A stretch of 64,000 bases of DNA from an uncultured Acidobacteriaceae bacterium (GTDB taxonomy: Bacteria > Acidobacteriota > Terriglobia > Terriglobales > Acidobacteriaceae), in NCBI GenBank assembly GCA_963745845.1, contig CAVUZE010000007.1:130672-194671 (forward strand). Direction: 5' to 3'. How positions within the stretch are numbered: the stretch's first letter is position 1; every line of letters starts with the position of its first letter. Shown piece by piece: positions 10,023 to 47,439 of the stretch. Below the pieces are notes generated by a model. That model saw only the letters and a list, made by a program, of their open reading frames with translations, did no database searches and was not told the origin of the DNA. The position numbers were made by a program, and so were the translations under genes.

Positions 10023-10067
10023 CATTCTGTTTCCTGTTGCCTAGTCCCTTTTCCCTGCTTTTGTTCC

Positions 10068-10103
10068 GGGGTTCCCGGCGACAGGTCTTCGTCACTGGGG
10101 TGG
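10068..10103 (+). repeat. Type-A REP-like hairpin
   Basis: GGGGTTCCC-GGCGAC-AGGTCTTC-GTCACT-GGGG-TGG, directly after the fabF stop. Confidence 0.85.
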
Positions 10104-24060: not shown

Positions 24061-24669
24061 CTAGCGCGCTTGTTGTTGCACCGGCGGGCGCGGCGCAGAG
24101 GGCGGCGCCTGTTGTGCTGGCTTCGGCTTTGCCCCTTCCTTCTTCGACGGCGCCAGGATGGCGTGCAGGATGGTTCCTTCCATGCGCGGCATAAACTCCA
24201 CCGTCCCCGCTTCGCCGATATCTTGAATCAGCCGGTTGATGATGGCGTATCCCAGTTCGCGGTGGGCCATCTGGCGGCCACGGAAGCGCAGGCTGGCCTT
24301 CACCTTGTCGCCTTCATTCAAAAAGCGCACAGCCTGGTTCTTCTTGGTCTGGTAGTCGTGCTCGTCCACCGTGACCGAAAACTTGACTTCCTTGATGGTG
24401 ATGACCTTTTGCTTCTTGCGGGCGGCGCGCTCGCTCTTCTCTTTTTCGTAGAGGAAGCGGCCGTAGTCCTGAATGCGGCAAACGGGTGGAACGGCGGTGG
24501 GCGAAACTTCCACCAGATCGAGCCCGCGCTCGCGGGCGATCTTCAACGCCTCAAAAGGAGGCAGGATTCCCAGTTGTTCGCCGTTTTCGTCGATGACGCG
24601 AATCTCGCGTGCCCGGATGCGATCGTTGATGCGGATAAAAGACTTGGCCGAACGTTTATCGAGTGCGAT
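24061..24669 (-). CDS. infC: Translation initiation factor IF-3, non-AUG (ATC) start
   Basis: RINDRIRAREIRVID, DLVEVSP, IKEVKF, GDKVK; GGAGGAG SD followed by AACC-ATC at 24669. Confidence 0.95.
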   Translation of the reverse strand: MALDKRSAKSFIRINDRIRAREIRVIDENGEQLGILPPFEALKIARERGLDLVEVSPTAVPPVCRIQDYGRFLYEKEKSERAARKKQKVITIKEVKFSVTVDEHDYQTKKNQAVRFLNEGDKVKASLRFRGRQMAHRELGYAIINRLIQDIGEAGTVEFMPRMEGTILHAILAPSKKEGAKPKPAQQAPPSAPRPPVQQQAR

Positions 24670-24729
24670 GGTTCTCCTCCACTTGGGGTTCGCAGCTTCC
24701 GGTTCCGGGGCCATCCGGAACGGTAAAGG

Positions 24730-24871
24730 GGTTCCACAATTACTTTTCCCCGAAGCACCGCCGCCAAGTGGCTTTTTCCTTCCGGGGTCCCCGGCGACAG
24801 GTCTTCGTCGCTGGGGTGGAAGAAAATGCCAACTTGCACGACAGTGGAAAGGGCATGTGAATTGTGGAACC
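24730..24871 (-). promoter_or_regulatory. ~140-nt rod-like hairpin in the infC 5' leader
   Basis: Perfect 12-bp inverted repeat GGTTCCACAATT (24730-41) / AATTGTGGAACC (24860-71) enclosing further pairings and a type-A repeat at the tip. Confidence 0.6.
24784..24819 (+). repeat. Type-A REP-like hairpin
   Basis: GGGGTCCCC-GGCGAC-AGGTCTTC-GTCGCT-GGGG-TGG. Confidence 0.9.
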
Positions 24872-24898
24872 GCTCTAAAAAGCCCACGAACGCACCCT

Positions 24899-24909
24899 GA
24901 GTATAGCAT
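24899..24909 (-). promoter_or_regulatory. Extended -10 promoter for infC
   Basis: TG-C-TATACT on the minus strand ~30 nt upstream of the rod hairpin. Confidence 0.55.
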
Positions 24910-24938
24910 TGGTTTGGTTGCAGCCGCGCCAGGTTTGG

Positions 24939-24956
24939 GCGCAAAGAGGGTGGGAA
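24939..24956. repeat. Half (right arm) of a type-B palindrome
   Basis: GCGCAAAGAGGGTGGGAA resembles GCGCGAAAGGGTGGGAG at 25851-67. Confidence 0.4.
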
Positions 24957-26582
24957 TCAATCCGCGGCAAACGACTCCGAAATTGCTGAAAGCTCCTTCG
25001 CTTCAACACTCGACAAGTTACCCTGTGCATCGATTCCGGTAACGCGCACTCGGACGCTTTGATTGGCGGGGAGGGATCCATCCACCTCGACCGGCAGAAA
25101 ATTCTCGGTCAACGCTGAAGTCCGGCCCAACTGGGCCAGCGCCTCCGGGGTGTGCAGAGTGATCGCGTCGAGTTCCTGGCCCACAAATGCTTGCCGGTGC
25201 GCCAGGCTCTTTTCCGCAGCCAAGGCGCGCATTGCAGCCATGCGCTCTACGACGACCTCGACAGCAACAGGGTCCGCTGCATGCAATGCCCAGGCGCGCG
25301 TTCCGGGCCGCGGCGAAAATGGGAACAGGTGCAGATAGCCGAAAGGCAGCGCGCGCACAAATTCGAGTGTCTCCTCGAACTCGGCATCCGTTTCGCCGGG
25401 AAAGCCCACCATGACATCGGCGCCGAGGGTTAACTCAGGTCCCGCGGCTCGCACCAACGCCGCAACTTTTTCGGCATAGTGCCACGGCCGGTAGCGCCGG
25501 TGCATGCGTCGCAGCACTGCGTCCGACCCGGATTGCAAAGGCAGATGCGCATGACGAGCCAGACGAGCACCCCAGCTCCCCGGACCTGTCGTTGGGGCTC
25601 CTGGCTTACCCTGCCGATGAATGGGATTCGCCGACCGCGCAGGTCCGCCGAACTCCGCCATCAGGCCGATCAACTCGGCATCCCAATCCATCGGCTCAAT
25701 CGAGCTCAATCGCAGCCGCGGCAATTCTGTTTGCGCAAAGATTTGCCGCACCAGGCTGGCTAGCGATGCAGGCGTCGCGGCCGAACTCCGTGCCCCATCC
25801 TTTCGGCTCACCGGGGTCCCCGCGGACAGGTCCTCGTCCGTGGGGTGGTCGCGCGAAAGGGTGGGAGACCACGCATCTCGAATTTCATTTGTCTCGCCTG
25901 CAACTGCAAGGTCCCGTCCCCACCGGCCTAAATTAATGCCGGAGAGGACCAGCTCGATTCCGCCTGCCGCAACAAATCCCTCTACCTGCCGCATCACGGC
26001 CGCGCCGGGCAGACTTCTAGACGAGCCTCTCGTTTGCGGGATGACGCAGAACGAGCACCGGTTTCCGCAGCCTTCCTGGATCTTCAAATTCGGCCGGGTC
26101 TGCGCGCCGGGAACCACCTGTGCTTCGGCTAAAAACGAATGGGCGAAAGAATCATCGGCAAGAATGAGAGGCGAACCGCTGCCCGCGATCAACGATGCCA
26201 TGCTCACTAGTCCTGCATTCGACGCAATCGCATCTTGCCCAGTCACTAGCCCGAGAGCAATCTTCGGCACGGATGCTTTGTGGCTGTTGCCCACAACCGC
26301 CGCGACTCCAGCCAATGCCGCCAGTTCCTCAGGCGCCCGCTGCGCATAGCAGCCCGTCGCCACAATCCGCGCCTCGGGATTGAGCCGGTGGGCTCGGCGA
26401 ATAAACGCGCGCGCTTCACGATCGGCTTCGGCGGTCACACTGCATGTGTTCACGACGATCACATCGGCTTGCTGGGCCTGCCGTTCCGAACATCCGGACG
26501 CGTTCAATTGCGCGGCAATTGCCTCGCCATCGGCCCGGGCCGCGCGGCAGCCGAAGTTCTCAATGTGAAACGAAGATCCCAC
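24957..26582 (-). CDS. mtaB: tRNA t6A37 methylthiotransferase MtaB (radical SAM) with two repeat-derived in-frame insertions
   Basis: ENFGC, VNTCSVT, TGCYAQ, KIQEGCGNRCSFCVIP (CxxxCxxC), HLPLQSGSD, DVMVGFPGE, FPFSPRPGT; GTG start at 26582. Confidence 0.9.
   Translation of the reverse strand: MGSSFHIENFGCRAARADGEAIAAQLNASGCSERQAQQADVIVVNTCSVTAEADREARAFIRRAHRLNPEARIVATGCYAQRAPEELAALAGVAAVVGNSHKASVPKIALGLVTGQDAIASNAGLVSMASLIAGSGSPLILADDSFAHSFLAEAQVVPGAQTRPNLKIQEGCGNRCSFCVIPQTRGSSRSLPGAAVMRQVEGFVAAGGIELVLSGINLGRWGRDLAVAGETNEIRDAWSPTLSRDHPTDEDLSAGTPVSRKDGARSSAATPASLASLVRQIFAQTELPRLRLSSIEPMDWDAELIGLMAEFGGPARSANPIHRQGKPGAPTTGPGSWGARLARHAHLPLQSGSDAVLRRMHRRYRPWHYAEKVAALVRAAGPELTLGADVMVGFPGETDAEFEETLEFVRALPFGYLHLFPFSPRPGTRAWALHAADPVAVEVVVERMAAMRALAAEKSLAHRQAFVGQELDAITLHTPEALAQLGRTSALTENFLPVEVDGSLPANQSVRVRVTGIDAQGNLSSVEAKELSAISESFAAD
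25567..25601 (-). repeat. Degenerate type-A repeat inside mtaB
   Basis: Minus strand GGAGCCCC-AACGAC-AGGTCCGG-GGAGCT-GGGG-TGC; encodes GAPTTGPGSWGA. Confidence 0.65.
25790..25872. repeat. Composite type-B palindrome carrying a nested type-A hairpin (25813-25848), inside mtaB
   Basis: GTGCCCCATCCTTTCG ... GGGGTCCCC-GCGGAC-AGGTCCTC-GTCCGT-GGGGTGG ... CGAAAGGGTGGGAGACCAC; read as WSPTLSRDHPTDEDLSAGTPVSRKDGAR. Confidence 0.85.
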
Positions 26583-26699
26583 AAAACCAGTGTAGGACAA
26601 TGCGCAAACCGGGGTGGCGTTGACCCGAACTCTGGCCCACACATCGCGAGGGCGATATCACAATCCTCCTTCAATTCCTGTGCTAGACTCCCTCACGTT

Positions 26700-28307
26700 A
26701 TGCGAATCCATGCTGCTCTGTTGCAAGTTTTCCTGGCCTCTGCTGCTATTGTGCCGGCTGTCCTGTTCGCGCAAGAAAACTCCGCTCCTCACCTCGAGAA
26801 ACGCGGTGCGGCGACCCAGCTTTTCGTTGATGGCAAGCCCTTCCTGATCCTTGGGGGCGAGTTGCACAACTCTTCTTCCTCCAGCCTCGATTACATGAAA
26901 CCGCTTTGGTCCGAACTCGCCGGTATGGGCCTCAACACCGTCGTCACGCCGCTCAGTTGGGAACTCGTCGAGCCCGTGGAAGGCAAATACGATTTCACGC
27001 TCGTTGACGGTCTTCTCGATCAAGCGCGCCAGGAGCATACGCGCATCGTCTTTCTCTGGCTCGCTTCGTGGAAAAACGGCATGTCCAGCTATGCCCCTGT
27101 CTGGGTCAAGCAAGACACGCGGCGTTTCCCGCGAGTGGTTGAAAATGGCGCCGAGGTCGAAGTCCTGAGCCCGCAGGGAACTGCGACAGAAGAGGCCGAT
27201 GCGCGTGCCTTTGCCGCACTGATGCAGCACATCAAAGAAGCTGATAGCCGCGATCACACCGTGCTCATGATGCAGATCGAAAATGAAGTCGGAGTTCTCG
27301 GCGATACGCGCGACCACTCCGCAGCGGCAAACCGCGCTTTTGCCTCTCCAGTGCCCGCCGAGTTGACCCGCTATCTGCAGGCGCACCGCGACACCCTCTA
27401 CCCATCGCTCCGCGCGCTCTGGGATCCGAATGGCGACAAAACCTCGGGGACATGGGCCGAAGTCTTCGGCGATACCGAACGCGCCGACGAGCTTTTCATG
27501 GCTTGGCACTACGCCCACTTCGTTCAGTCCGTCACGGCGCGTGGCAAGGCAGCCTACGACATTCCGATGTATGTCAATACCTGGCTCGCTGGCGACGACT
27601 CGACACCGGGAAATTACCCCAGCGGCGGTCCCGAGCCGTGGGTCATCGACGTCTGGAAGGCTGCGGGCTCCGCAATCGACTTCTATTCACCCGACCTCTA
27701 CGACCCGAACTTCGCCCTGTGGTGCAAGCGTTATCACCGCGACGGTAACCCGCTCTTCATGCCCGAAACCCGAGGCGGCGCAGCTGGTGCGGCCAATGTC
27801 TTCTACGCGCTCGGCGAGGAGGCTGGATTTGGTTTTTCTCCTTTCGGCATCGAAAGCGAAATCGACGCGAAGGGCGATCTGGCCGCAAGCTACACGCTGC
27901 TTGCGAAACTGTCCCCGCTGATCGCGCGACACCAGAGCGACGGCACCATCCATGGTTTCGTTCTCGACCACAGCCGTCCGTCCGTCGACTTCACCATGAG
28001 CGGCTACACGCTCCACGTCACGCTGGATGAGATCTTTGACAGTCACTCCGAGACGGGCTACGGAATCGTTATGGCGACTGGCCCCGAAGAGTTTCTTGGA
28101 GCCGGCAAAGGATTCCGTGTTTCCTTTATTCCGCGTTCCGGCAAGCCAGTGGGCATCGCCGCTGTCGACGAAGGAAGCTTCGGCGATGACGGTAAATGGA
28201 TTCCCGGACGGCGTCTCAACGGCGACGAAAATGACCAAGGGAAAGGCTGGCGCTTTGATTCACTCGGGTTGAAAATTGAAAAGGCGGCACTCTACCGGTT
28301 TGAGTAA
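26700..28307 (+). CDS. Secreted GH35/GH42-like beta-galactosidase with DUF5597-type C-terminus
   Basis: Signal peptide; VDGKPFLILGGELHNSSSS, MQIENEVG (acid/base Glu), LFMPET (nucleophile Glu). Confidence 0.8.
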   Translation: MRIHAALLQVFLASAAIVPAVLFAQENSAPHLEKRGAATQLFVDGKPFLILGGELHNSSSSSLDYMKPLWSELAGMGLNTVVTPLSWELVEPVEGKYDFTLVDGLLDQARQEHTRIVFLWLASWKNGMSSYAPVWVKQDTRRFPRVVENGAEVEVLSPQGTATEEADARAFAALMQHIKEADSRDHTVLMMQIENEVGVLGDTRDHSAAANRAFASPVPAELTRYLQAHRDTLYPSLRALWDPNGDKTSGTWAEVFGDTERADELFMAWHYAHFVQSVTARGKAAYDIPMYVNTWLAGDDSTPGNYPSGGPEPWVIDVWKAAGSAIDFYSPDLYDPNFALWCKRYHRDGNPLFMPETRGGAAGAANVFYALGEEAGFGFSPFGIESEIDAKGDLAASYTLLAKLSPLIARHQSDGTIHGFVLDHSRPSVDFTMSGYTLHVTLDEIFDSHSETGYGIVMATGPEEFLGAGKGFRVSFIPRSGKPVGIAAVDEGSFGDDGKWIPGRRLNGDENDQGKGWRFDSLGLKIEKAALYRFE

Positions 28308-30079: not shown

Positions 30080-30093
30080 AGACAACCCGGACT

Positions 30094-30128
30094 GGGGCCC
30101 CATTGACAGGTCTTCGCCGATGGGGTGG
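30094..30128 (+). repeat. Type-A REP-like hairpin
   Basis: GGGGCCCC-ATTGAC-AGGTCTTC-GCCGAT-GGGG-TGG, 14 nt after the rplT stop. Confidence 0.8.
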
Positions 30129-38535: not shown

Positions 38536-38869
38536 CGGTCAAACGTCAAGCGCAAAGAACAATTCGACTGAATCTCTGTTCGCATTCTTCTTGATTTAGC
38601 GATTTCGATGTAGTGTTCCCGTTTCAGGACGCCTCGTCGCTTATCCGTCCGCCTCGGCTTTTTCCTGCGATTCCTTTCGCTCTCGACTTTACCGATCGCT
38701 CCAGCTTCCGATGAAATGGGATGTAGGCAGCGAGAGCGGTTCCACAATTCATGCGCCGTTGCCAGTTCCGTTCAAGGTGGCATTTTCTTAAAGGGAAAAT
38801 GCCACTTAGCAGCAGCGGTTTCGGGGTATAGCAATTGTGACCCGCTGTAGCCTGGAGGCAGAAGGTCCG

Positions 38870-47364: not shown

Positions 47365-47439
47365 GGGTGCCCAGGTCCGGGGTTCCCACGAGCACGTCTT
47401 CGTTCGTGGGGTGGAGATCTCGATTTTTGAGACCTGGGA
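47365..47439. repeat. Composite type-B palindrome carrying a nested type-A hairpin (47379-47414)
   Basis: GGGTGCCCAGGTC-C-[GGGGTTCCC-ACGAGC-ACGTCTTC-GTTCGT-GGGGTGG]-AGATCTCGATTTTTGAGACCTGGGA, between convergent genes. Confidence 0.88.

Follow-up and report, generated by a model that had tools for sequence, protein, structure and literature searches.

How can a gene for a tRNA-modifying enzyme take up intergenic repeat sequence within its reading frame and still stay open? This question is raised by mtaB in a 64,000-nucleotide (nt) stretch of DNA from an uncultured Acidobacteriaceae bacterium (the window, meaning the whole stretch analysed), the predicted product of which, a radical-SAM methylthiotransferase, carries two extra peptides that lie on copies of palindromic repeats. 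The host is a free-living soil acidobacterium with a large genome (6.38 Mb), belonging to the genus Terracidiphilus in the family Acidobacteriaceae. Taken together, repeat searches, orthologue comparisons and structure prediction make it very probable that short non-autonomous palindromes were inserted into two loops of the radical-SAM domain of an intact mtaB, and that they are now translated as part of the protein.

Repeat-derived loops in MtaB

The mtaB open reading frame (ORF) was counted from its first GTG (Table 1), and alignment with orthologues suggests that the true start may lie near amino acid (aa) 15–21 (26580–26600). Its product contains UPF0004 and Radical_SAM domains (Pfam), with no Pfam TRAM match at E ≤ 0.001; the C-terminal part of the AlphaFold model forms a five-strand beta unit at aa 490–547. 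The best NCBIfam model was the MtaB equivalog TIGR01579, over a match split in two, and the MiaB/RimO subfamily model TIGR00089 was passed (286 bits, cut-off 251). The nearest solved structures by sequence were MiaB (7mjv) and RimO (4jc0), with query residues 241–361 corresponding to only residues 220–272 of 7mjv. By fold, the AlphaFold model came closest to the B. subtilis MtaB model 9a6d, and next to MiaB and RimO. All six Fe–S cysteines are present (FGCRAA, NTCSV, TGCYAQ, CGNRCSFC) and are invariant or nearly so among orthologues, and no second copy of the gene was found in the genome at E ≤ 1e−40. By these features, mtaB appears to be intact and present only once in the genome, coding for a radical-SAM methylthiotransferase with predicted tRNA t6A37 activity.

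At the first insertion site (site 1), 47 aa separate GRWGRDL (aa 239–245) from SLASLVRQI (aa 293–301), compared with ~9–10 aa in most orthologues; 54 of the 108 orthologues measured have the modal site length of 28–29 aa. The extra sequence is an 83-nt composite, in which a type-B palindrome (termed B′ at this site) encloses a type-A hairpin, and its full antisense reading in mtaB is WSPTLS-RD-HPTDEDLSAGTP-VS-RKDGA. This nested type-A copy is close to consensus: on a weight matrix constructed with the mtaB copies left out, it scored 57.2 bits, a value equalled or exceeded at only 21 of 12.76 million genome positions. B′ occupies site 1 in eleven orthologue loci, ten of them without nested type A (L002, L003, L054, L057, L061, L065, L074, L085, L111 and L113, among which two pairs represent the same contig taken from two collections). 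The B′ peptides of other orthologues include WSPTHPAEERRMDGA, SPTLSAEGIRKDGA and VPTLSPEKKRKDGA, and the hairpin is kept across orthologues through compensatory stem changes (TTTCG/CGAAA, ATGCGGC/GCCGCAT, TGTCGC/GCGACA). Two of the B′-only loci, L054 and L057, group with the window in a well-supported clade of 13 members and have its TTTCG/CGAAA stem but lack type A, which suggests that the nested hairpin was a later event in the window's lineage.

At the second site (site 2), 28 aa separate LMAEF from RLARHAHLP, versus 3 in most orthologues. Measured from EPMDW... to H.H.PLQS, the spacing is 46 aa in the window and 21 aa, the empty state, in 83 of 108 orthologues. The insert combines a 13-aa segment with a degenerate type-A copy, the latter missed by nhmmer and found by the weight-matrix scan, where its 12.5 bits ranked 117 among 12.76 million genome positions; it matches the consensus at 28 of 38 positions (counted by hand). 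The 13-aa segment is common to the relative L056 (PARPANAFPRQG), itself without type A; no other copy of it was found in the genome. L094 and L081 (Occallatibacter savannae) have near-consensus type-A copies at this very position, scoring 59.9 and 49.0 bits, respectively, with a net insertion of 14 codons (42 nt) in both, and a decayed copy is present in L004. Nucleotide position, orientation and frame are the same in the window and these three orthologues, each of the four lineages has an empty sister, and the tree requires four changes. The L004 MtaB also carries a fourfold tandem ARIQ repeat.

An AlphaFold2 model built on 18 orthologues had a mean predicted local distance difference test score (pLDDT) of 71.7. 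Values fell below 50 over aa 251–288 in insert 1, bracketed by strand 230–234 and helix 294–304, and over aa 336–357 in insert 2, bracketed by helix 322–331 and strand 364–368. As these stretches lie between confident elements, the prediction is that each insert forms a disordered loop between core parts of the radical-SAM barrel.

These results bear out most of an earlier note on this DNA, which had described two extra MtaB peptides lying on repeat copies, the first a type-B palindrome with a nested type-A hairpin and the second a degenerate type-A copy in the opposite orientation, in a gene with its frame and Fe–S motifs intact. Both peptides were recovered from sequence, orthologue lengths and the weight matrix, and the ORF is full-length with all six cysteines conserved in the alignment. 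The note had also proposed aligning orthologues and modelling the structure: the former yielded empty sites at site 2 and modal lengths at site 1, and the latter placed both inserts in low-confidence loops between confident elements. Its estimate of about 20 aa for the second peptide was too low, the insert having 25 extra residues.

Repeat-derived peptides were also seen at further MtaB positions in other Terracidiphilus genomes (L022, L023, L024, L078 and L099). Their locations are site 1 and the region separating the UPF0004 domain from the radical-SAM domain, and they include GHGFSRAE, GTGFSPYIR and AGMPPVQPARKPALQ.

Table 1 Features of the window, RAYT genes and in-frame type-A inserts elsewhere in the genome (positions are those of the window unless a contig label, C1 or C8, or an aa number is given)
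Feature	Position	Strand	Remarks
mtaB ORF	24957..26642	-	561 aa, counted from first GTG
Site-1 loop, aa 246-292 (AVAGETNEIRDAWSPTLSRDHPTDEDLSAGTPVSRKDGARSSAATPA)	25767..25907	-	47 aa, ~38 extra vs modal orthologue
Type-B′ palindrome GTGCCCCATCCTTTCG...CGAAAGGGTGGGAGACCAC	25790..25872	+	antisense reading in mtaB: WSPTLS...RKDGA
Type-A hairpin core CCGGGGTCCCCGCGGACAGGTCCTCGTCCGTGGGGTGG	25811..25848	+	38 nt, inside B′ loop; antisense reading HPTDEDLSAGTP
Site-2 insert, aa 334-359 (PARSANPIHRQGKPGAPTTGPGSWGA)	25566..25643	-	
Degenerate type-A copy, 38-mer, reading PGAPTTGPGSWG	25567..25604	-	forward on coding strand
13-aa segment PARSANPIHRQGK	25605..25643	-	5′ part of insert 2
Predicted junction-crossing peptides of MtaB inserts			DAWSPTLSR, DHPTDEDLSAGTPVSR, QGKPGAPTTGPGSWGAR
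Type-A copy	24775..24819	+	intergenic, infC-mtaB spacer
Type-A copy	10059..10103	+	intergenic
Type-A copy	30084..30128	+	
Type-A copy	47370..47414	+	nested in type-B palindrome
RAYT gene	C8:1358402-1359076		bounded by inverted type-B copies
RAYT gene	C8:1533741-1534409		four copies of B variant around it
RAYT gene	C8:116140-116700		flanked by different hairpin GGCACGACTGAAGTCGTGCC
SecA	aa 920		type-A insert
MutS2	aa 147		type-A insert
GatB	aa 151		type-A insert
GltX	aa 188		type-A insert
RibD	aa 297		type-A insert
OTCase-type carbamoyltransferase	aa 241		type-A insert
6-phosphogluconolactonase	aa 227		type-A insert
Fpg	aa 80 + 93		type-A inserts
Mur ligase ORF	C1:190750-192597		partial type-A insert (aa 185) and composite B+A insert (aa 421)
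GH79 hydrolase	aa 173		type-A insert
M20 peptidase	aa 120		type-A insert
FG-GAP/ASPIC protein 1	aa 571		type-A insert
FG-GAP/ASPIC protein 2	aa 366 + 380		type-A inserts
Acyl-ligase/acyltransferase	aa 660		type-A insert

Repeat families and their in-frame copies in other genes

Five type-A copies lie within the window, and a profile built from them recovered 106 copies across the 6.38 Mb genome at E ≤ 0.01 (nhmmer). Their consensus, CCGGGGTCCCC-AGCGAC-AGGTCTTC-GTCGCT-GGGGTGG (written as a whole, CCGGGGTCCCCAGCGACAGGTCTTCGTCGCTGGGGTGG), describes a hairpin with a 38-nt core, a 10-bp stem and a constant 8-nt loop (AGGTCTTC). GGGGT and TGG form its feet; CGTC is confined to the loop–stem junction, and there is no terminal GTAG/CGTC. 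Weight-matrix scores were bimodal, with 141 of 12.76 million positions above 0 and 117 at ≥12.5 bits, and a 33-nt pattern allowing ≤2 mismatches matched 69 genome sites, against 0 for a reversed control. We put the copy number at ~110, of which ~85% lie outside genes. Stem pairs 13:30, 14:29 and 15:28 covary (GC, CG, AT, TA) around the constant loop. Two asymmetries were seen: on the strand as written, G·T/T·G pairs outnumber A·C/C·A pairs by 80 to 26, and for 84 of 117 copies the forward strand coincides with the C-rich (lagging-type) one (p about 3e−6), the latter bias pointing to a strand-specific process tied to replication or transcription. The consensus contains no stop codon in any of the six frames, so that insertions would tend to keep genes open.

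Type A was detected in 23 of 24 Terracidiphilus genomes sampled (0–69 matches) and in 11 of 116 Acidobacteriaceae genera, with more than five matches only in Terracidiphilus genomes. The pattern was absent from 16 genomes of a neighbouring family, and its reversed control gave zero matches everywhere. Among species with MtaB about 70% identical, the type-A sequence is nearly identical. Rfam returned no family for type A or B, either at the gathering threshold over the whole window or at E ≤ 1 over 24500–26700. Arrays of type A have a period of 42 nt (14 codons) in several genomes.

Type B consists of conserved feet, GTGCCCCA ... TGGGA(A/G)A(G/C)C, around a variable hairpin, and is found either empty (~35 nt) or filled with type A (~74–87 nt). 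A loose pattern gave 90 candidate sites; no enrichment is seen for its leading 8-mer taken by itself. Homologues of Y1 transposases number five in the genome. Three of them, scoring over the NF047646 cut-off, qualify as RAYT (repetitive extragenic palindrome-associated tyrosine transposase), and genes of this type are common in Terracidiphilus. Because type-B copies flank two of the three RAYT genes, type B appears, on this genomic arrangement, to be a repetitive extragenic palindrome (REP) family in the classical sense. The hairpin around the third has translations (GHGFSRA, GTGFSPY) that occur as MtaB inserts of other species. Type A resembles type B in layout, with a GGGT-type foot, a stem start CCCCAG and an end CTGGGG.

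In-frame insertion is not confined to mtaB. Open frames spanning each type-A copy were screened for coding-type codon usage on both sides and then against Pfam, and several long open frames over repeats were discarded as spurious. This left ~19 type-A copies in frame within ~15 conserved genes, flanked on either side by Pfam domains or coding signal; in the proteins listed in Table 1 they lie inside domains or between them. Among the copies, both orientations with respect to the mRNA are found, and their frames are strongly biased: GxPxDRSSSxG is used by 10 of the ~19, and the hydrophobic frame RGPQRQVFVAGV by none (binomial p = 3.5e−4). The GatB site is empty in 20 of 22 relatives; a decayed type-A copy stands at the same site in gatB of genome G003 (L136), and none in its sister G004 (L135), which has neither a type-A pattern match nor a RAYT homologue. 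Under a strict codon-usage classifier, 39% of random windows were coding, versus ~13–16% of type-A copies; the corresponding figure for type B was 3 of 90 copies. Repeat elements are thus depleted in genes, yet far from excluded from them. Flank scores are low enough that the classifier misses mtaB itself, leaving its own B′ unflagged, and the in-gene counts, which hinge on this rather coarse classifier, are therefore lower bounds.

Several further arrangements of these repeats were seen. A tandem array of five type-A units with 43-nt spacing lies at C7:20249–20460, on the same contig as the window but outside it, and 42-nt arrays of two or three units occur in other genomes. Within the infC–mtaB spacer (24775–24876), the type-A copy is capped by the arms GGCTTTTTCCTT / AAGAAAATGCC. 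These arms are part of another repeat, type C, the third described here, which has an inverted partner of 57 nt at 38733–38789; the same arrangement is found at C8:1545892, C6:69419 and C7:583655. Type A is also often located inside GTTCCCT/ATTCCCT heptamer runs (C1:139901–141895, C8:2031061, C6:42290, C2:869619), and one FG-GAP/ASPIC gene has both a heptamer run and type A in its reading frame (GNRE-HPTNEDLFVGTP-EGTGNR). Two in-frame type-B copies were noted in a 1112-aa ORF (C8:3174875–3174973).

Probable insertion history and alternative explanations

Empty sites, B′-only intermediates and a nested type A in one lineage are what insertion of palindromes into a functional gene predicts. Occupation of both MtaB sites recurs within the genus, so a double hit on the gene is no coincidence. 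A REP-type B′ would first have entered the loop after GINLGRWGRD, in an ancestor common to several Terracidiphilus lineages. A 38-nt type-A hairpin would later have been inserted into the B′ loop, in the window's lineage only, and the loop before RLARHAHLP would have gained the 13-aa segment and then a type-A copy, which has since decayed. Selection may have retained only those copies that landed in tolerant loops and in frames giving hydrophilic, disorder-prone peptides (GxPxDRSSSxG, HPxDEDLSxGTP). Type B was probably moved via single-stranded DNA by RAYT enzymes; for both families, mobility is something we infer from the sequences. The earlier note had counted two apparently independent hits on the gene. 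Insertion stands, and the count becomes at least three layers, namely an old B′, the nested A, and the site-2 segment plus its A. The suggestion that mobile palindromes donate protein loops holds only at the level of open frames and conservation.

Several observations weigh against this history. Compared with their empty sisters, the four site-2 junctions show no target-site duplication or common target motif, and comparisons of B-filled with B-empty sites likewise gave no convincing motif or duplication. No type-A copy adjoins any of the five Y1 genes, and across 24 genomes type-A copy number is uncorrelated with RAYT presence; on these two grounds RAYT was dropped as the mover of type A and kept for B. 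No fewer than seven gains or losses of B′ are required on a 98-sequence tree, so its single descent is not established, and B′ at site 1 would appear to have been either repeatedly gained or repeatedly lost. The clade uniting the window with G003 and G004 is weakly supported in a small tree (81/51); the MtaB tree as a whole is that of a single gene with many weakly supported nodes, and several of the relatives are metagenome-assembled genomes. The mtaB product itself scores under the TIGR01579 equivalog cut-off (328 vs 357 bits), presumably because the inserts split the match, and codon-usage scores beside the inserts are low, the coding frame nevertheless ranking best.

The last two points would also be expected if mtaB were an inactivated gene, in function a pseudogene that is still open by chance. 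We consider this very improbable in view of the full-length ORF, the six Fe–S cysteines, more than 100 invariant alignment columns and the lack of any other copy at the threshold given above, and because inserts of the same kind are found in the essential SecA, GatB and GltX. Assembly artefacts are less credible still: assemblers can be misled by repeats, but both inserts are in frame, each is a single short copy with unique flanks, and many independent assemblies likewise show B′ at site 1 and type A at site 2. More serious is the possibility that the patchy same-site pattern reflects one ancient insertion per site followed by many precise excisions, rather than repeated insertion into a preferred target. 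Transposition of the IS200/IS605 (Y1) type excises seamlessly, and the frequency of RAYT genes in the genus, the 3′ stem half GTCGCT common to the L094 and L081 copies, and the short 5-aa remnants at site 2 in 12 orthologues all fit such a course. However, the L094 and L081 copies are near consensus in host genes only 63–68% identical to the query, where an ancient neutral copy should have decayed, each of the two has an empty sister, and at least ten independent precise losses would be needed. On balance, we find ancient insertion with excision somewhat unlikely.

The intragenic hairpins might instead be kept for a function in nucleic acid, such as mRNA stability, translational pausing or DNA-binding targets, the peptides being tolerated by-products. 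Compensatory changes preserve the B′ hairpin in orthologues, type A is near-identical across species despite the divergence of their MtaB, and both the excess of G·T over A·C pairs on one strand and the 84:33 orientation bias relative to GC skew can be read in this sense. Yet in-gene copies face both ways relative to the mRNA, most orthologues do without them, Rfam gave no match, and conservation of the hairpin is equally expected of copies that are young or recognised by a transposase; we judge a nucleic-acid role improbable. Insertion of mobile palindromes into tolerant loops remains our preferred account, and it admits a bolder form that we put forward only tentatively, as rather doubtful. 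Type A may be a site-selective, frame-neutral mobile hairpin that recognises particular contexts (palindrome loops and certain coding sites), is moved by an enzyme other than a classical RAYT, and has hit the same codon independently across lineages. If so, it would amount to a natural, repeated loop-insertion experiment on essential proteins.

Relation to known intragenic palindromes

In-frame palindromes in essential genes are best known from obligate intracellular Rickettsia, where they are often explained by weak selection. Here, the same phenomenon appears in a soil bacterium that is free-living and has a large genome; the element is much shorter, and SecA, GatB, GltX, MutS2, RibD, Fpg and MtaB are among its hosts. 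About 100 related genomes offer graded states, from empty sites through the outer palindrome to the outer palindrome with a nested hairpin, and from the strong frame bias one can, it seems, read off directly which loop peptides proteins tolerate. Questions that can be tested now include how the elements choose their targets, at what rates they are gained and lost, and whether useful protein variation arises from them. There is also a consequence for annotation, since such inserts can drop real enzymes under curated family cut-offs, as with MtaB here.

Rickettsia palindromic elements (RPEs) lie in frame in many unrelated housekeeping genes (Ogata et al. 2000, 2002, as summarised in PMC10969869 and PMC3733652). 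The resemblance that the earlier note had drawn to RPEs, for a different repeat family, is strengthened by the in-frame copies in ~15 further genes; in both cases host genes stay open and inserts occupy loops compatible with the fold (PMC10969869, PMC3733652). The differences are considerable. Phylum, lifestyle and sequence are distinct, the last as judged without direct alignment to RPEs, and size and host set the present elements apart from RPE-1 to RPE-10: the type-A core is 38 nt with a 42-nt period and the B′+A composite 83 nt, whereas RPEs measure about 100–150 bp. Moreover, type A is mostly (~85%) intergenic, elements are nested, and several lineages have independently come to carry a copy at one gene site.

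Closer in size are the intragenic REPs of the GTAG/CGTC super-families described in several bacteria (Di Nocera et al. 2013, PMC3733652). These, too, are hairpins of 20–40 nt that are mostly extragenic, with a minority in genes where they encode 13–30 extra residues; they form dimers or arrays, count tRNA synthetase and DNA repair genes among their hosts, and share the RAYT link seen for type B (PMC3733652). Type A differs from them in having neither the terminal GTAG/CGTC foot nor RAYT adjacency. REPIN–RAYT systems (Bertels and Rainey 2011, PMC3116915) offer a parallel in vertically persistent populations of short hairpins, with RAYT in the genome and, for type B, flanking it. REPINs are inverted doublets (PMC3116915), whereas type A is arranged in direct arrays of 42-nt period; nor did its abundance track RAYT presence across the genomes compared. 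In-frame miniature transposable elements with inverted repeats (MITEs), such as the Coxiella QMITE (PMC5896051; PMC10969869), are likewise small non-autonomous elements that give rise to in-frame fusions or insertions. Type A is shorter than typical MITEs, a single hairpin without terminal inverted repeats flanking a spacer, and without a target-site duplication at the four site-2 junctions.

In our literature searches, neither the type-A family nor the phenomenon itself was found described for Acidobacteriaceae or Terracidiphilus. What the present case adds to the known in-gene palindromes is the nesting of one element within another, a module of 14 codons, and the recurrent occupation of the same codon position across lineages.

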